Shown piece by piece: positions 19,967 through 30,895 of a DNA stretch of 64,000 nt. This stretch comes from a virus (taxonomy: Duplodnaviria > Caudoviricetes): the IMG/VR virus record IMGVR_UViG_3300050034_000334; one strand, 5' to 3'. Below the pieces are notes generated by a model that made no database searches, had not been told where the DNA came from, and saw nothing but the letters and a program-made list of their open reading frames with translations. The translations under genes were made by a program, and so were the position numbers. Position 1 is the first letter of the stretch. Each line of letters opens with the position of its first letter.

Positions 19967-20760
19967 GCATTGTGCTTGTCATATATCTGAAACAGATCAG
20001 AGATAGCCAAGCCAGAAAACTTTTCAGCAAATGCAAATACTTCGGATAGATCACTTTCAAAAAGGAAAGTCACATTTGGATGAGCCTTTTGTTTTGCCTC
20101 AGTTTGAGCAGAAGGCCATCCCTTGATTTCTATGAGTTTCCCATCCACTTCAAAGTCAGGAAAGAATTTCTTAAAAGATCCTTGGAATTCGTACTTCAAC
20201 CCCAGCCTATTTCTCTGGATTGATTTCCCATTTTCTAGACACCAAATCAAGAAAGCACATTCCCAAGTTGATTGAACTAGAAATCCTCTGAATCTTCCTT
20301 GTTTTCCTCTTCCTCCCTTTTCTCGAAAACCACCTATCCTATTTGAGTTGTGAATACCCAACATCCGAATCATTCGTACACAATCATCCGAGCAAGTTAT
20401 CCTCCCCTTTAAGGAAGGTTTCCCACAATATTTGCAAGGAACAGGAACTCGATTTCTGTCCCTTTCCTGCCGCTCTTTGCTTCGTATCTCTAGGATTCTC
20501 TTGTGACTTTCAGGACTCCAAGGATTCCTTGAAGCAAAACTACGAGCACAGGATATCTTGCAAAACCGTTCTTTCTCTCCCTCCTTAATCTCTTTTTGGA
20601 AGGTAGTGTTACAATTCTCGCAAACAAACTGGCAAGTGATCCGATTATTACAACAAGGTTTCTTAATTCTAGGTCGCAGAGAACAGTTCCGGATATGCGC
20701 TCCCCAAACTTGACCCCTTTCGTTCCCCCTCATCAATCTGCACCACTGGCACTGACTCAT
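19957..20760 (-). CDS. putative homing endonuclease, PD-(D/E)xK type with N-terminal Cys-rich zinc fingers
   Basis: STWE...PDF...IEIKGW nuclease motif; several CxxC pairs; AT-rich; sits between tRNA-Gly and tRNA-Asp. Confidence 0.75.
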   Translation of the reverse strand: MSQCQWCRLMRGNERGQVWGAHIRNCSLRPRIKKPCCNNRITCQFVCENCNTTFQKEIKEGEKERFCKISCARSFASRNPWSPESHKRILEIRSKERQERDRNRVPVPCKYCGKPSLKGRITCSDDCVRMIRMLGIHNSNRIGGFREKGGRGKQGRFRGFLVQSTWECAFLIWCLENGKSIQRNRLGLKYEFQGSFKKFFPDFEVDGKLIEIKGWPSAQTEAKQKAHPNVTFLFESDLSEVFAFAEKFSGLAISDLFQIYDKHNAGS

Positions 20761-20762
20761 GA

Positions 20763-20796
20763 TTCCGACCTCCTATAATCAAATAGGAAGTCGGAA
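20763..20796 (-). promoter_or_regulatory. 14-bp hairpin sequestering the endonuclease Shine-Dalgarno
   Basis: TTCCGACTTCCTAT-ttgatt-ATAGGAGGTCGGAA-tc-ATG; AGGAGG lies in the 3' arm. Confidence 0.8.
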
Positions 20797-20803
20797 TTCA
20801 AAG

Positions 20804-20875
20804 AGCGGGTAGTCAGATTTGAACTGACGCATGATAGAGTGGAAGTCTATTGCCTTACCACTTGGCGATACCCGC
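20804..20875 (-). tRNA. tRNA-Gly(TCC), no encoded CCA
   Basis: GCGGGTA/TACCCGC, U73, loop CT-TCC-AC. Confidence 0.92.
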
Positions 20876-20892
20876 AACTTGTACAACAAAAT

Positions 20893-20967
20893 TGGAGCGG
20901 CGGATGGGATTTGAACCCACGACCTCTTGCTTGGCAAGCAAATGTTCTACCACTGAACTACCACCGC
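20893..20967 (-). tRNA. tRNA-Gly(GCC)
   Basis: GCGGTGG/CCGCCGC, U73, loop TT-GCC-AA, encoded CCA. Confidence 0.95.
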
Positions 20968-20972
20968 TCATC

Positions 20973-21083
20973 TGACGTGAATGAGTTTCGATTCATGTCT
21001 GGAATGCGCCCCCATAAACCCACCGCGATTGCCCCAATGGGCTTATGGTGGAGCAGATAACCCAAACACATCGACTCACGTCA
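20973..21083 (-). ncRNA. long imperfect hairpin between permuted tRNA-like RNA and tRNA-Gly
   Basis: TGACGTGA/TCACGTCA outer helix; inner 14-bp CCATAAGCCCATTG/CGGTGGGTTTATGG. Confidence 0.55.
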
Positions 21084-21088
21084 TAAAT

Positions 21089-21232
21089 CTCTGCACGAAC
21101 GAAAAGTGAACTTCGTTTTTTAAGGCGTCCTAACCCCTAGACGACAGCCCCATGATTTGGCGGGGCCACCAGGATTCGAACCTGGGTATCCTCCTTGACA
21201 GGGAGAACAAAATTCTGACGGCTCGTGCAAAA
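21089..21232 (-). ncRNA. circularly permuted tRNA-Asp(GTC)-like RNA (Y RNA YrlA-like, two-piece or permuted tRNA; class unresolved)
   Basis: Order on minus strand: anticodon arm (21206-21190), ATAC, T-arm, TGGCCCC-G-CCA (to 21158), linker AATCAT, GGGGCTG (from 21151), D-arm; leader and trailer pair in two further helices. Confidence 0.8.
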
Positions 21233-21236
21233 CCTT

Positions 21237-21314
21237 TGGTGCGCCGTCAGGGATTCGAACCCCGGACCTACTGCTTGTAAGGCAGCCGCTCTAACCGGAC
21301 TGAGCTAACAGCGC
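21237..21314 (-). tRNA. tRNA-Val(TAC)
   Basis: GCGCTGT/ACGGCGC, loop CT-TAC-AA, encoded CCA. Confidence 0.95.
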
Positions 21315-21327
21315 ACATCTTAGTACC

Positions 21328-21358
21328 AAAACGAAAAGGACAGCCGCTTGGGCTGTCC
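21328..21358 (-). terminator. intrinsic terminator-like hairpin just upstream of tRNA-Val
   Basis: GGACAGCC-caagc-GGCTGTCC then TTTTCGTTTT. Confidence 0.7.
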
Positions 21359-21870
21359 TTGGTTGAATCTCGCTGAAGTTTAGCTGATTCGCACCAAGGA
21401 CAGATGCCCGGTATCCACGCCCTCCGCTGCTTCAGCGGCGACGACCGTTGCAACTGCTCCGACGAATTCAACCATGCTCTTCATGACAATCTCCATAATA
21501 CTACGGATTTGCTCTCCGTAAACTACTATTTTTGCCACCAGGCAAAAGATTTCGCGTGTAGGAGGATGATAGCCCAGACACTGGTGACCAGATGTGACTA
21601 TCACCACTACACGCATCTCAAACTTTGCGACGGAGTTTAGCACCCTCTAAAGTGTCGCTCACTCCATCGTTCAGGAAGGTTTCGCACTTTCGCGTACACC
21701 TACAACCCTGTCATCTAGGACATCGCTGTTATGCTAGTTCATCGAAGCTCAATTTGTCGGCGACCCGCTCTGGTCGTCCTGCGCTTCTGTTCGATCTTCC
21801 GACATGTTTCCATGCCTACCGTCTTCGAATTTCAGACCGCTCTGGTCGTCCTGCGCTATCGCCTGATTAC
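21359..21870 (-). ncRNA. candidate large structured non-coding RNA
   Basis: About 510 nt with no convincing long ORF; many helices, H-type pseudoknot pattern, 21-nt direct repeat, ends at a terminator. Confidence 0.45.
21765..21857. repeat. 21-bp direct repeat, 2 copies, 51 bp apart
   Basis: ccgctctggtcgtcctgcgct at 21765-21785 and 21837-21857. Confidence 0.95.
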
Positions 21871-21872
21871 CT

Positions 21873-22256
21873 CTACGGAGCAACTTGGGAAAACGGGTAA
21901 TCCTTGTCATCTTTGATGATTTTCACTTCAATGAGAGAGTCTTTAAGCTGATCGTAAACCTCAGGCGAGATATTGACACAACCCTCAGTCACGTTCCTTC
22001 TCTGTAAAGGATCAGCGGAATCCAATCGTTCCTCACGATGCTGAGAAGGAATTAGAAGCCACGTTCGATGGATAGCATACACTCTGTCTGGTAGCTCATC
22101 AAACACAAGAATGTCTCCGCCGTAGCCAGGAGCCTTAGTGCTTTTATGAACCACGGAGAAATCACCAGTCGGAGTTAATCTGCCGACCAAGGCCGGGTAG
22201 CAGTGGCCTTGGAAACAGATCAACGCCGAGTTGAGAAGAATAAAAGCGACGATCAT
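21873..22256 (-). CDS. L,D-transpeptidase (YkuD-like) catalytic domain protein
   Basis: LVG..TPTG.F, YAIHRTW ... TEGCVN His/Cys motif; hydrophobic N-terminus. Confidence 0.8.
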   Translation of the reverse strand: MIVAFILLNSALICFQGHCYPALVGRLTPTGDFSVVHKSTKAPGYGGDILVFDELPDRVYAIHRTWLLIPSQHREERLDSADPLQRRNVTEGCVNISPEVYDQLKDSLIEVKIIKDDKDYPFSQVAP

Positions 22257-23251
22257 TACTGGCTAATCTTCTTGGTTTCTTGTGGAAACACGGTGTAAGC
22301 AGGAACAGGAACAGGAGTTGGAGACGTAGCTGTCGCCGGCACTGGTGATGCTGGAGGCATCGCAACTGTGGGAGTTGTCACAACCTGAGGAGGAATAATG
22401 GATTGTGGCTGTTGTGTAACTGGCGCTGCTGGAGATGATGCGACGACTGGATTCGTCATCTCGGCCACCTGAGCATCGGAGATTTGGACAGCCATAACGA
22501 TCAGACCTTCTTTGTAAACAGGTCCTGCTGTCGCATGGTTGAGACCAGTTCCGGCACTGTATGCCTGAGATCCCGTAGCAGCGGAGCCGGTCAAAGCTGC
22601 ACCGACCGCGCCCATGCCAACTCCCCATCCCGTGGTTGTGGTGCTTGTCGTTGTCACCTTCTTAACCAAGAAGATACCGTTCGCATGCATGTGCAGCGTC
22701 TCGATCACCGCCTTGGCAATCACGTCGATAGTGTTGGATTTCTTTCCACCTTGAAGGAAGATGTACCCAACGCGAGAAAACTTGGAGTCATCGAAAACCA
22801 GGATCGGTTTTCCATTTTCCTCAACGATTCTCCCATCCTTACCGATGAGTGCCTTCGTCGGCAGAGACTTGAGAATTTTGCAGGTGCTGAACTGATAACT
22901 GCCGTCAGCCATCCTGTTGACTCGTGCCGACACCCCTCCGTTGTACATCTGCTTGGCCTCGCCGAGAGTGATTTCTTCGGGCAAAGAGACCAGGTTATCC
23001 ATGATATTGGCGCCTGTGCTCCACGGCCCCAGATACACTTCCACTGGCGCTTGATAGGGTGCTACTGGTGATGCAAACCACCGACCCGTACTCGGATCAG
23101 AAGCTGCATAGTTTTGGTTGACCACCGACGATGACCCTGCTGTTGCTCCCGATGTTGCTCCGGATGTCGTCATAGTCTGTGCGAATGTCGTAGCCACCGC
23201 GAATGCCATTAATGCGATTGTGGTAGCAGCAAGTAACCTCTTCACGTTCAT
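22256..23251 (-). CDS. secreted/envelope protein with signal peptide
   Basis: Sec signal ending TFA|Q; Thr/Gly-rich alternating segment; Pro/Thr-rich tail; AAGGAGA RBS. Confidence 0.8.
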   Translation of the reverse strand: MNVKRLLAATTIALMAFAVATTFAQTMTTSGATSGATAGSSSVVNQNYAASDPSTGRWFASPVAPYQAPVEVYLGPWSTGANIMDNLVSLPEEITLGEAKQMYNGGVSARVNRMADGSYQFSTCKILKSLPTKALIGKDGRIVEENGKPILVFDDSKFSRVGYIFLQGGKKSNTIDVIAKAVIETLHMHANGIFLVKKVTTTSTTTTGWGVGMGAVGAALTGSAATGSQAYSAGTGLNHATAGPVYKEGLIVMAVQISDAQVAEMTNPVVASSPAAPVTQQPQSIIPPQVVTTPTVAMPPASPVPATATSPTPVPVPAYTVFPQETKKISQ

Positions 23252-26315: not shown

Positions 26316-29300
26316 CTAACTGCATCCAGTTGTTTGTCCACAATCGTTGCACTTTTCACAGGTTCCGGATCTCACCATGTGCATAGATCCGCAAGCACCA
26401 CAGGAGTTCCCAGTGAAACCACTGCGCTTGGCTTCACTGGCCTCTGATACGGTTGGCAAACGTGTTTCTTTGTCTACTAACAGCCCCAATGATTTCACCT
26501 TTTCCTTGTCCTCAGGTTTGATGTGGGCAAGGTCATAGCGATCCAGATAGGTGATTGCCAACTCACGGAAGACATAATCCATCAGAGAAGTGGCATTCTT
26601 GACATAGCTGGAACCCTGAACAAATCCAGAAGGTTCAAACTTGGTGAAAGTGAACGCATCCACAAACTCCTCGAGCGGAACGCCGTACTGCAATCCCAGA
26701 CTGATGGCGATAGCAAAGCAGTTGAGGAGAGAACGCAAGGTTGCTCCCTCGCGACTGACATCGATGAAGACCTCTCCCAACCTGCCATCCTCGTACTCCC
26801 CGGTGTGCAGATAGAGGGAATGATCGCCAATTTTGGCCTTCTGTACAAATCCATGGCGACGGTATGGTAGACGCTTGCGAAATCCTCGAGCTAATGCTTC
26901 TGCCAAGACAGCAGCTTTTGTGTCGTTGTTGGCACCGCTGGTGAGCACTTCAACTTCCTTCTCATCCAGGCCCTCCAGCAGCTGCATGTTTGTGGCTAGA
27001 GCCTGTGACATCTTGGATCCGTCACGATACAGAGCCACTGCTTTGATGCCAAGTTCCCACGCCAACAGATGAATGTCATTGAAGTCTTGTTGAGTAGAGT
27101 TGGCCGGGAGATTTACAGTCTTGCTGATAGCTCCTGAAATGAAGGGTTGAACAGCTGCCATCATCTCCACATGAGCACGTGGAGAGATGAAACGAGTACC
27201 ATTTTCACCACACTTGTTGGCACAATCGAACACGGCCAAGTGAGCATTCTTCAAGGCCGGTGCCCCTTCGATGGTCTTCTCGTTCTCGATGTGCTTGAGG
27301 ATCTCAACCACTTGTTCGTCCGTGTACCCCAAGTTCTTCAAGGCCGGAGGGACAGACTGATTGACTATCTTGAAGTATCCTCCACCGGCCAACTTCTTGA
27401 ACTTCACCAGAGCATAGTCAGGTTCCGCTCCCGTCGTGTCGCAATCCATCACCAACCCGATGGTCCCTGTCGGAGCCAAGCAGGTGCTCTGGGCATTCCT
27501 CAACCCGAATTCCTCAACCTGAGACACTACCTTGTCCCAGATGTCACGAGCCTGAGTGACCAGCTTTCTTGGTCCACGATAGAGAAGTTTCAGACCCACA
27601 GGAGTAGTTGAAAGCCCATCGTATCCAAGCTCTCCATTGTAAGCAGCCGAACGATGGTTCCGCATCACTTTCAAGACAACCTCTCGATTTTCATCATAGC
27701 CAGGAAACACTCCCAACTTCTGAGCCAAATCTGAGGATGTCAGGTACGATTCACCTGTCATGATGGCAGTGATGGCCGCAGCCCAGTTTCGGCCGGTCTC
27801 ACTGTCATAAGGAAAGCCCAGCTGCATGAGCATGGCGCCAAGGTTCGCGTATCCCAAGCCCAGGGTGCGGAACTTGTATGACAACTCAGCAATCGAGGGT
27901 CCTGGGAACTGAGCCATCGTTACAGAAATCTCTAGAGCGATGGTTGTCAAACGGCAGCAATGGCGGAAGGCCTCGACGTTGAACTCTCCGTCTTCCAGGA
28001 ACTTCACGAGATTTGAGGAAGCCAGATTGCAGGCAGTGTCATCCAGGAACATGTACTCGCTGTTGTGTATAAACACACCAGAAAAGTTGTCGTGACCATT
28101 CACACAAGACGGTTTTGACGAAGTGAAAACAGCAAAGTTGTGGGTATTGTCTACCGTACCATCGTAGACGTCTTCATTACCACAGAACTCTACCGAAACA
28201 ACCGTATGGTTGAAGTTGACCACGGCCTCTTGTAGTAACTCATCAGTGGGGTACCAACGAACAATAGTGTCTTTTGTGGGAAATTTCTTCACTCCAAGTT
28301 GCTTTGCTACATCTCGTAGTTCTTCCCAATTTTCTAGAGAAAAAGAAACTCCATTATCTTGAAAAGTTCGAGCAACCTCAGCAATCATACCCTCGATTAA
28401 ACGCTTCGAGTGACGTTCTCCAAACATTTGTTTACCAAGTGGAGATCTCTGACATTCAGTACCACAGCAAATCTGATCCTCCAAAATGGTGATGAAATTA
28501 CCACGGCATATAGGGCAGCAACGCTCAAATCGTTCAGCAGTTACTGTACGACCAATATGCCTACCCTCTGATCGCATTTTTGTTTGTGTTTCTCTTATAG
28601 ATCTACTCAACTGTTCGTGTTGTTGGTGGTCTTCCCATCTAGAAACTGCAGAATTACTCATATTCTGTTTGGAAACTTCACTGTGCTGTTTTCCAAACAT
28701 AGGGTTAAGTTCACCAGTGATTGATTTTGAAATGTTGGCACGCCATTCATCATTCATTAAACGACGGGCTGGATTATTGTCACCAAGCATTGATTCCCGA
28801 TGCAAAGCTGCATGATCCTTCGCAGACAATAGCTTGAAATTTTGTGGGTTATCATTCAGAGCATCAAAATCAGAGTGATGAATGTGATAACCTTCCGGTG
28901 CTTGACCAAAAAAGAAATCGTTAATTAAACGATACTGCTGAGCCCAACGAGTACCTCCCCACACATTTCTACGACGCGTGGCTCCTTTTCCATTTTGGAT
29001 TATGGAAGAGTGAAAAGGCATAAGAGAATCACCAGGTTGTAGGTCTATAACCTTTCGGTATGAACCATCCCGCAGCATCATAAGTTCGTCGTCAGTAACA
29101 CGTAGGCTACTTCCATCGTCAAACGTAACGCAGAAAATGGGAGCATTAGTTCTTTTAACTCCAATATTCCACATCAATTCTATTGAAGTCTTTTGCGTCC
29201 TGTGATTCCTGGTAAACACAGGCACTTCTGTTCCTACCAAATCTCTAATAGGAACCGCTGTACGACCATCTGCTACAGCCACCAAAGTCTCCCCAGTAAC

Positions 29301-30710
29301 ACAGCACGGATTGCTGGCATTGATTCTTCCGGAATTCAGACAAGTGTGCCAGTCATTGATGGTCGTGTCGAACTGGATCCCAGGATCTGCACAAAGGAAA
29401 GAAGCCCGGTTGATCTGATCAAACAACTTCTTGGCCTTAAGAGTCTTGGCCACTTCCCCGGTGGTGCGGAAGGTCAGATTCCAGTCCCTGTCCTTTTTGA
29501 CGGCATGCATGAATTCATCTGTGACACGAATTGTGTTGTTGGCATTCATGCCTGAGACTGTCTGGTATGCCTCTCCCTCCCAGTTCAGATCGTACAGAGG
29601 AAGATCGTCAGTGAAGTCAGATTCAGACAAACGAGTCAGACACTGCCCTAGAAATGCTCCAGGCACTCCCATTTTTCTGGCATGGCTGATGACTTTGGCA
29701 AGCTCCTTGTTCTCTTTCGGATTTGCCTTCAAAGCCAAATCTTTGGAAGTGAAGGTGTTGTAAGCCTCCAGCATCTCTCCCCAGATGGTGCGAAGGAGTT
29801 GACTGCCAGCAGCCATTGCAACAACCTTGCGCTCTTCATTCACCTTCCAGTTGATGAAGGCCTCTACATCGGGATGGTCCACATTGAGAACAACCATCTT
29901 GGCTGCTCTGCGGGTGGTTCCTCCAGACTTCACTCCTCCGGCTCCGACGTCTCCCACCTTCAACCAAGACATGAGACCTGAGCTCTTTCCGCCGCCGCTC
30001 AAAGGTTCTCCATATCCACGCAGGGCAGAGAAGTTGGATCCTGTTCCGGAGCCATACTTGAACAAGCGAGCCTCGCGATGGAACAGGTCGAAGATTCCTC
30101 CAGGATTGACGAGGTCGTCTTTCACTCCCTGAATGAAGCAGGCATGAGGCTGAGGACGCTTGTACGCAGAATCGCTCACGGTCAACTCTTTGGTGCCGTC
30201 GTCGACATAGTAGTGACCCTGTGGATCTCCCTCAATTCCGTATGCCCAGTACAAGCCGGTATTGAACCACTGAGGGGAATTGGGAGCAACGTACTGCATC
30301 ACCACCATGTAGAGCATCTCGTCGTAGTAGGCTTGGGCGTCTTTCTCTGAAGAGAAGTATCCGTATTCCTCTCCCCACCCAGTCCAGCAACCTACGATTC
30401 TATGAGCAGTCTGTCTCACATCAGTTTCGTAAGTGATCCCATCCGGATGGTCCAGCTTGGAGGCCCACTCGGTGGAGTACTTGCTGTTGTAAAGGGAGTT
30501 GGGGTGGTTGTGATTCACTCCTTGCCGGCGGAAATACTTCTGGGCAAGGATATCCAAGGCAGTCTGAGACCAGGATTCTGGCACGATGACATTGTCGTTC
30601 TCAAAAACCACAGAATTGTCTGGTCTAACGATGTTGGAGCATCTCCGTATGAAGCTGATGCCCTCTAAAGGCGACTGTCCGGCCTTGGTGAAAATTCGCT
30701 TTACCTTCAT
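26316..30710 (-). CDS. nrdJ: class II (adenosylcobalamin-dependent) ribonucleotide reductase, intein-containing
   Basis: PNSP.WFN, ACFI, TRRAAKM, NPC|SEY, ACNLAS, GLGYANLG, IAPTGT-like LAPTGT, ISKTVN, C-terminal TSCPD-like domain and Zn ribbon. Confidence 0.95.
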   Translation of the reverse strand: MKVKRIFTKAGQSPLEGISFIRRCSNIVRPDNSVVFENDNVIVPESWSQTALDILAQKYFRRQGVNHNHPNSLYNSKYSTEWASKLDHPDGITYETDVRQTAHRIVGCWTGWGEEYGYFSSEKDAQAYYDEMLYMVVMQYVAPNSPQWFNTGLYWAYGIEGDPQGHYYVDDGTKELTVSDSAYKRPQPHACFIQGVKDDLVNPGGIFDLFHREARLFKYGSGTGSNFSALRGYGEPLSGGGKSSGLMSWLKVGDVGAGGVKSGGTTRRAAKMVVLNVDHPDVEAFINWKVNEERKVVAMAAGSQLLRTIWGEMLEAYNTFTSKDLALKANPKENKELAKVISHARKMGVPGAFLGQCLTRLSESDFTDDLPLYDLNWEGEAYQTVSGMNANNTIRVTDEFMHAVKKDRDWNLTFRTTGEVAKTLKAKKLFDQINRASFLCADPGIQFDTTINDWHTCLNSGRINASNPCCVTGETLVAVADGRTAVPIRDLVGTEVPVFTRNHRTQKTSIELMWNIGVKRTNAPIFCVTFDDGSSLRVTDDELMMLRDGSYRKVIDLQPGDSLMPFHSSIIQNGKGATRRRNVWGGTRWAQQYRLINDFFFGQAPEGYHIHHSDFDALNDNPQNFKLLSAKDHAALHRESMLGDNNPARRLMNDEWRANISKSITGELNPMFGKQHSEVSKQNMSNSAVSRWEDHQQHEQLSRSIRETQTKMRSEGRHIGRTVTAERFERCCPICRGNFITILEDQICCGTECQRSPLGKQMFGERHSKRLIEGMIAEVARTFQDNGVSFSLENWEELRDVAKQLGVKKFPTKDTIVRWYPTDELLQEAVVNFNHTVVSVEFCGNEDVYDGTVDNTHNFAVFTSSKPSCVNGHDNFSGVFIHNSEYMFLDDTACNLASSNLVKFLEDGEFNVEAFRHCCRLTTIALEISVTMAQFPGPSIAELSYKFRTLGLGYANLGAMLMQLGFPYDSETGRNWAAAITAIMTGESYLTSSDLAQKLGVFPGYDENREVVLKVMRNHRSAAYNGELGYDGLSTTPVGLKLLYRGPRKLVTQARDIWDKVVSQVEEFGLRNAQSTCLAPTGTIGLVMDCDTTGAEPDYALVKFKKLAGGGYFKIVNQSVPPALKNLGYTDEQVVEILKHIENEKTIEGAPALKNAHLAVFDCANKCGENGTRFISPRAHVEMMAAVQPFISGAISKTVNLPANSTQQDFNDIHLLAWELGIKAVALYRDGSKMSQALATNMQLLEGLDEKEVEVLTSGANNDTKAAVLAEALARGFRKRLPYRRHGFVQKAKIGDHSLYLHTGEYEDGRLGEVFIDVSREGATLRSLLNCFAIAISLGLQYGVPLEEFVDAFTFTKFEPSGFVQGSSYVKNATSLMDYVFRELAITYLDRYDLAHIKPEDKEKVKSLGLLVDKETRLPTVSEASEAKRSGFTGNSCGACGSMHMVRSGTCEKCNDCGQTTGCS
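28062..29303 (-). mobile_element. intein (414 aa) with HNH endonuclease and NUMOD3-like segment
   Basis: Begins CVTGETLV, ends VYDGTV..THNF...FIHN|S; HIHH.D....ND...N...H HNH motif; AT-richer than exteins. Confidence 0.92.
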
Positions 30711-30895
30711 GCTATTGTGTCCTTGGGTATGGGGGATTTCGAGGGTCAGAAATCGTACGTGATGATTCAATACTCAGCCTATGAAAGATTGGTTACAAGT
30801 TACCGATTACCAAGGTGGTTACTCACTCGGGTGCGTATTTCTTCATGCGGCGAAAGCATCGCCAAACGCTGGTCTCACTGGTAGGATGGATAAGT

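Follow-up and report, generated by a model that had tools for sequence, protein, structure and literature searches.

The stretch in question lies at 21899-21326 on the minus strand of the analysed window, which comprises 64,000 nucleotides of the minus strand of a 187-kb IMG/VR virus record (about 60 % complete). A YkuD-like gene is located directly upstream, and nine tRNA genes, other small RNAs and one endonuclease-like ORF follow downstream. Elsewhere in the window, an intein with HNH and NUMOD3 endonuclease parts splits the gene of a class II ribonucleotide reductase (26316-30770, minus strand). The features of the locus are listed below with window coordinates unless stated otherwise; z-scores refer to the fold in comparison to dinucleotide shuffles.

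24283-24160, minus: promoter and M1 paralogue, consisting of a class A promoter (24283-24255) and a rod (24248-24160)
22256-21873, minus: YkuD-like gene, 127 aa
21899-21871, minus: class A phage promoter, -35-like TACCCGTT and -10-like CCGTAGAG, 13 nt apart
21864-21757, minus: M1, 5'-terminal rod closed by GGCGAU/GUCGCC, MFE -38.8 kcal/mol
about 21750-21622, minus: M2, variable 128-nt insert with short TTGAG direct repeats on both flanks
21614-21554, minus: M3, imperfect hairpin of 61 nt, MFE -31.9 kcal/mol, z -4.5
21550-21494, minus: M4, two small hairpins with the motif GGCAAAAATAGT ... CCGTAGTATTATG, z -3.9
21522-21495, minus: sigma-70-like TTTACG-16-TATTAT within M4, 9/12 consensus match
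21484-21380, minus: predicted leader ORF, 34 codons and stop, GGAG 6 nt upstream of the ATG
21403-21354, minus: predicted antiterminator helix, -26.4 kcal/mol, 5' arm formed by the last leader ORF codons
21360-21336, minus: predicted intrinsic terminator with T-run to 21326, 10-bp stem, 12-22 nt before tRNA-Val(tac)
21314-21237, minus: tRNA-Val(tac), first of nine tRNAs, all reading GNN codons
genome 70171-70300 (L002:1376-1505): third rod of 130 nt, starts at a class A promoter, z -6.9

The promoter motif, the folds and the variability of the modules, the composition of the ORF and the competing helices were computed directly. For the whole 558 nt, the z-score was -5.25 in the fold of the minus strand and -3.95 in that of the plus strand. 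By module, the values were -4.2 for M1, -4.5 for M3, -3.9 for M4, -3.7 for the attenuator (21420-21326) and -1.5 for M2. A first-pass annotation had described the locus as a large, structured, non-coding RNA. Directly ahead of the tRNA array, the minus strand is indeed mostly untranslated, strongly structured RNA, but the region presents itself as a chain of separable modules, and a 34-codon ORF with the Shine-Dalgarno sequence GGAG is predicted within it. The 5' edge in that annotation coincides with the predicted transcription start at about 21864, and its hairpins were found in the sequence: the long nested hairpin at 21614-21554, the TTTTGCC/GGCAAAA and TACGGA/TCCGTA stems at 21547-21495 and the CCTTGGT/ACCAAGG helix. 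The terminator that it placed at the end of the region was likewise predicted, as a stem followed by a T-run.

Promoter and structured modules

The class A motif, a TAACCGTT-like box followed after 13 nt by NNGTAGAG, occurs genome-wide. At the fixed spacer of 13 nt, 26 copies were present in the 187-kb genome versus none in a reversed-sequence control, and other spacings gave noise level. Of the 26 copies, 22 share the strand of the genes. An ORF of 40 aa or more has its ATG exactly 6 nt past GTAGAG in 11 copies, thus the motif is likely to drive leaderless messages, with transcription starting at the seventh base after the motif. The copy at the leader overlaps the stop codon of the YkuD-like gene, and a perfect copy is present at the equivalent place in the related contig L004. 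The motif was not found in 27 other giant-phage records or at 44 loci of YkuD-like genes, and no sigma-70 region 2 gene was found in the 187-kb record, which is about 60 % complete. At M1, at its paralogue and at the third rod before the Arg/Met/Trp block, the predicted start is the first paired base of the rod. At two class A promoters beyond the window (genome 55275-55283 and about 51300), the transcript is predicted to begin with a bare start-stop, ATG-TAA; the leader ORF of the Tyr/Leu/Ser block lies downstream of one of the two.

A second, proximal promoter may reside in M4, since the sigma-70-like sequence at 21522-21495 matches the consensus at 9 of 12 positions and a class A promoter occupies the position of M4 in the Tyr/Leu/Ser and Pro/Phe tRNA blocks. 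A transcript from this candidate would lose the Shine-Dalgarno sequence of the leader ORF. The motif GG(G/C)AAAAATAGTTT was observed upstream of three of the four tRNA-block leaders (genome 55220-55240 and 70297-70310, window 21536-21525) and may serve as an UP-like element or as the site of a regulator.

The two identical 21-nt repeats reported earlier on the minus strand were retrieved as R1 (21857-21837) and R2 (21785-21765). They lie opposite each other in the M1 rod and pair together. The repeat is an interrupted palindrome, and therefore the two copies pair two-fold symmetrically, with A.A mismatches. The GCATG-GAAA-CATGT hairpin of the first-pass annotation forms the tip of the rod at 21816-21801, and two L004 substitutions in the tip stem keep the pairing; the TGTCGG/CCGACA helix, also proposed there, is broken in the L004 haplotype. 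The repeats might instead be DNA operators for a regulator of the two class A promoters, with incidental RNA folds. As interrupted palindromes they would occupy +8 to +28 and +80 to +100 relative to the predicted start, and an R-like copy is also present past the paralogous promoter. We consider this highly improbable: the half-sites are unevenly spaced, all stem changes between the haplotypes produce or restore G.U pairs, a combination that is mismatched on the opposite strand, and the M1 fold is clearly better in sense than in antisense (z -4.2 versus -2.4).

Other roles of the repeats were considered and dismissed. A coding repeat (AQDDQSG twice, from repeats 21 nt long, 72 nt apart and in frame) had neither a conserved start nor a conserved frame. 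Searches of Pfam and PHROG gave no match, the only long ORF over the repeats begins upstream of the predicted transcript start, the frames are interrupted by indels of 5, 128 and 2 nt, and an internal ATG is lost in L190 and altered in L004. A duplex between the repeat and the GNN codons of the leader ORF reached -20.3 kcal/mol, a value equalled by shuffled repeats (P 0.40). A CRISPR mini-array, type III antitoxin repeats and a retron RNA were dropped on anatomy alone: the 'spacer' folds with its flanks, the repeats are non-tandem and a reverse transcriptase is absent.

M1 is not the only rod of this genome. The paralogue at 24248-24160 (z -3.9) shares the base helix of M1, and its 3' strand is R-like. 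The third rod has a perfect 23-bp base, encloses a T-arm-like GGTTCGAATCC hairpin and had no Rfam match; the leader ORF of the Arg/Met/Trp/Gln/His/Asn/Lys block follows immediately. The Tyr/Leu/Ser and Pro/Phe blocks are without an M1-like element. The combination GGCAAAAATAGT - hairpin - CCGTAGTATTATG of M4 was present elsewhere in the genome only just before the leader ORF of the Arg/Met/Trp block.

An H-type pseudoknot had been proposed for M2, near 21628-21665, but this 128-nt piece folds at chance level (z -1.5; 18 of 200 shuffles were as good), and a plain nested helix of 8 bp competes with the second stem of the pseudoknot. No further copy of M2 was found in the phage genome. Within M2, at 21745-21705, two tandem copies of a unit of about 19 nt (CGATGnnCTAG...ACAG) and four mini-frames of ATG plus one to four codons were observed.

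Natural variants and searches for relatives

The leader was compared in six contigs of one phage lineage, the window and five relatives (L004 from IMG/VR and the metagenome contigs L187-L190), which are 96-99 % identical to the window in the shared blocks. L004 and L187-L189 lack M2 and carry a duplication of 5 nt before R1. L190 has kept M2, and R1 and the tip hairpin are gone, 72 nt in all. M2 and half of M1 are thus dispensable or recent, and natural deletion variants already indicate which parts of the leader can be spared. From M3 to the terminator, the six contigs agree save a few base changes and one 1-nt indel; M3 was kept in all six, and its sole change, A-U to G.U, preserves the pair. 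These variants contradict one large ornate RNA, as modules of 128 and 72 nt are missing from near-identical relatives. Downstream, identity between the start of the array (21314-20880, from tRNA-Val(tac) through the Gly tRNAs) and L004:9654-10900 drops to about 70-78 %, and L004 carries an extra tRNA-Val(gac) relative to the window.

The L004-type contigs and L190 also lack a segment of 2.47 kb (24283-21871, genome 151025-153437) with three envelope-type genes (213, 331 and 127 aa) between two promoter-rod units, the paralogue unit of M1 being its left edge. The junctions differ between the two types, and recombination between the repeated promoters seems to have added or removed the segment as a module.

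Thirteen positions in M1, M3 and M4 differ between the haplotypes, five of them at predicted paired sites. All five substitutions keep the pairing on the minus strand via G.U or G-C, with a chance of about 0.001 for random substitutions and 0.045 for transitions only. Substitutions were depleted at paired sites (5/13 versus 68 % expected, P 0.03). The paired-site test comprises five transitions, on a structure derived from the window itself, and lends modest support to RNA structure in these three modules; we regard the rods M1 and M3 as real structures. Covariation, which the first-pass annotation had named as a check, is weak, with no compensatory double changes, because the relatives are 96-99 % identical.

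Indels of 2.47 kb, 128 nt, 72 nt and 5 nt separate three haplotypes, which might suggest that the stretch beyond promoter and attenuator is a functionless recombination scar, left by the shuffling of modules between repeated promoters. The indels fit such an origin, as their ends coincide with repeated promoters, R1/R2 or short direct repeats. We nevertheless consider this reading very unlikely. The folds of M1, M3 and M4 are far superior to those of shuffles, and the few substitutions in these modules spare the pairs or keep them intact; M4, in addition, is conserved in the leaders of two otherwise unrelated tRNA blocks.

As the earlier annotation had anticipated for an unassigned RNA, cmscan against Rfam assigned no family, neither for the whole window at gathering thresholds nor for 20700-22300 at E up to 10. 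Only tRNA-related matches were obtained, with no GOLLD, ROOL, T-box or Y RNA. A BLAST search of the leader against the phage collection gave no match. Scans of IMG/VR, metagenomes and genomes for relatives retrieved only the five contigs of the same phage lineage; the matches listed for an AT-rich pattern scan of IMG/VR included chance matches, and the genome scan gave one chance match in a Myxococcota MAG. Synteny with the YkuD-like gene did not reveal the leader at 44 loci or in 27 whole giant-phage records. The 360-kb record of a more distant giant phage (L118, G001) contains 49 tRNA genes unsorted by codon row, including the suppressor-type anticodons tta and cta, which hints at stop-codon recoding.

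The function as a CsrA sponge, suggested in the first-pass annotation, did not hold. GGA was observed 11 times versus 11.4 expected and A.GGA 5 times versus 3.0 expected, and the GGA motifs are located outside hairpin loops. CAGGAxG is present in two copies only because the motif sits inside the 21-nt repeat, and both sites are in the paired part of the rod. No genes for TROVE/Ro60, CsrA or RNase III were found in the 187-kb record, about 60 % complete. A Y RNA was rejected, with no match to a Y RNA model and none to TROVE in this record.

These observations bear on an independent, trans-acting RNA. The 5' 370 nt (M1-M4) might be released as one non-coding RNA, or cut into several rod RNAs, that bind a host or phage protein, comparable with Y-RNA-like rods or with the stable RNAs from the tRNA cluster of T4. 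The stretch has its own promoter with the start at the base of the rod, M1, M3 and M4 have strong fold z-scores, substitutions preserve wobble pairing, the duplex of the two identical repeats has the two-fold symmetry that a dimeric binder would require, and a further rod RNA precedes another tRNA block of the same phage. We nevertheless consider a free RNA unlikely. The structured part runs into the short ORF, with no terminator-like site or obvious 3' end between them, and pieces of 128 and 72 nt are dispensable in natural variants. The missing Rfam match, the lack of Ro60, CsrA and RNase III genes in the record, the GGA content at chance level and the lack of likeness among 27 other giant-phage records also argue against it.

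Leader ORF and transcription stop before the tRNA genes

The predicted leader ORF ends 66 nt upstream of tRNA-Val. Val, Ala, Glu, Gly and Asp account for 20 of its 33 residues in comparison to a background of 0.33 (P 0.001), and codons 5-24 are of the GNN type for these amino acids in 18 of 20 cases. Under strict wobble rules, the tRNAs of the block itself read only 15 of the 33 leader codons (P 0.03), and the array of the window is without a tRNA-Val(GAC) for the GUU and GUC codons of the leader. Each of the four tRNA blocks of the genome has a short ORF ahead of it in which the amino acids of that block are enriched (18/29, 16/30, 20/33 and 5/18 residues). The own set had the highest count for each leader except B4, with 5/18 residues of its own versus 7/18 of the B2 set; yet these 5/18 are well above the B4 background of 0.085, the strongest enrichment relative to background.

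The predicted antiterminator and terminator are mutually exclusive: the 3' arm of the antiterminator is the 5' arm of the terminator, and the antiterminator is more stable (-26.4 versus -17.3 kcal/mol). Its 5' arm ends 10 nt ahead of the leader stop codon. In the fold of the full ORF and switch, the early ORF pairs with this 5' arm, so the terminator can form. The terminator at 21360-21336 is the only terminator-like site from the promoter to the end of the array. Ribosome binding site and short ORF, codon enrichment and mutually exclusive helices, which are hallmarks of an attenuator, are predicted here. The leader ORF is identical in the six contigs; ORF and switch together are invariant, whereas M1 and M2 carry indels.

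We read 21899-21326 (minus strand) with moderate confidence as a composite, modular, cis-acting 5' leader of the nine-tRNA GNN operon, attenuator included. From the sequence we infer where transcription starts, that the leader ORF is translated and how the switch operates, as follows. The class A promoter (21899-21871) would start a transcript at about 21864, the first bases of which are locked into the M1 rod; the optional insert M2, the stable hairpin M3 and the two small hairpins of M4 would follow. The control element would be the last 160 nt, with the ORF of 34 codons consisting mostly of the Val, Ala, Glu, Gly and Asp codons that the nine downstream tRNAs read. A ribosome stalled in the GNN run would leave the antiterminator (21403-21354) free to form, and RNA polymerase would read into the tRNA genes. 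A ribosome that reaches the stop codon would cover the 5' arm of the antiterminator and permit the terminator; without translation, the early ORF would pair with the same arm and the terminator would form as well. The leader ORF and the transcription stop thus probably turn on the tRNA genes in response to slow reading of their codons. This probable codon-matched attenuator ahead of tRNA genes is the most interesting part of the locus. For the modules in front of it, our first choice, as a guess, is that M1 and M3 are rods for protection or processing of the 5' end of the long transcript, although the exact identity of R1 and R2 (21/21, unpaired A's included) goes beyond what a mere protective rod explains.

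The position of M1 and its paralogue admits a more specific role, that of processive antitermination RNAs in the style of HK022 put or of the lambda nut and rrn boxA elements. Transcripts from the distal promoter would then ignore the attenuator terminator as well as Rho over the untranslated array of 2.3 kb, and transcripts from the proximal promoter would stay under codon control. The array is long and untranslated and would need protection from Rho, the tRNA leader may have two promoters, and two paralogous structured elements, each directly past a class A promoter, head different operons. We regard this role as quite improbable in view of the lack of sequence likeness to put, boxA or boxB, the location of CGCTCT of the repeat on the wrong strand, the single repeat and missing tip hairpin of L190, and the Tyr/Leu/Ser and Pro/Phe blocks, which do without such an element. 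Clearly unlikely is also a two-input unit, in which the codon-sensing attenuator would be combined with a new family of promoter-proximal rods (M1, the rod at 24248-24160 and the rod before the Arg/Met/Trp block); these would either allow transcripts from the class A promoter to escape attenuator and Rho or be released as small RNAs that bind proteins.

Comparison with known systems

The claim of a new large ornate RNA fails. Like GOLLD and ROOL, the leader adjoins a phage tRNA array and comprises several hundred nucleotides. Unlike them, it had no covariance-model match even at E 10, consists of modules with dispensable parts, includes an ORF predicted to be translated, and its relatives were confined to one phage lineage in the collections searched. 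Sponges of the CsrB/RsmZ type carry many GGA motifs, mostly in hairpin loops. The leader resembles them as a structured RNA with a terminator at the end and two CAGGAxG sites, and differs in its chance-level GGA motifs outside of hairpin loops.

Stabilising hairpins at the 5' terminus are known from the ompA 5' UTR and from the Bacillus/SP82 5' stabilisers, and at most one unpaired base before a stable helix is the geometry that blocks 5'-end-dependent decay. The predicted start leaves at most one unpaired base ahead of the M1 helix. In contrast to the known stabilisers, M1 is much longer than needed and contains two identical strands of 21 nt. HK022 put, lambda nut and rrn boxA are antitermination elements of leaders. 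M1 would share with these the structure just past a promoter, the paralogous copies heading different operons and the position before terminators or long untranslated RNA, yet a sequence or structural match is lacking and one natural variant is without half of the element. The locus shows how a tRNA operon leader of this kind is built and rebuilt, from a promoter that otherwise appears to drive leaderless messages and structured 5' rods.

Transcription attenuators with leader peptides control amino-acid operons, as in trpL, hisL and the ilvGMEDA and thr leaders. The phage leader resembles them in that its short ORF is full of regulatory codons and a terminator immediately precedes the first gene under control. 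The antiterminator has one arm in common with this terminator and is close enough to the stop codon to be reached by a ribosome positioned there, and the early ORF offers a partner for the antiterminator arm. As in the ilv and thr leaders, several amino acids would be sensed at once. Unlike in the classical attenuators, about 370 nt of structured RNA precede the leader ORF, and the regulated genes are tRNA genes and not biosynthetic or aminoacyl-tRNA synthetase genes. The element would therefore be attenuator-like in its working, but a new use of one, and a literature search found no published leader-peptide attenuator of a tRNA operon. Since tRNAs are regulated, what is sensed would be a decoding capacity supplied by the operon itself. 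Should the switch work in this way, the control of classical amino-acid operons is applied here to tRNA genes: the virus would gauge the decoding speed of the ribosomes for one row of the codon table and make its own tRNAs for that row only when they are needed.
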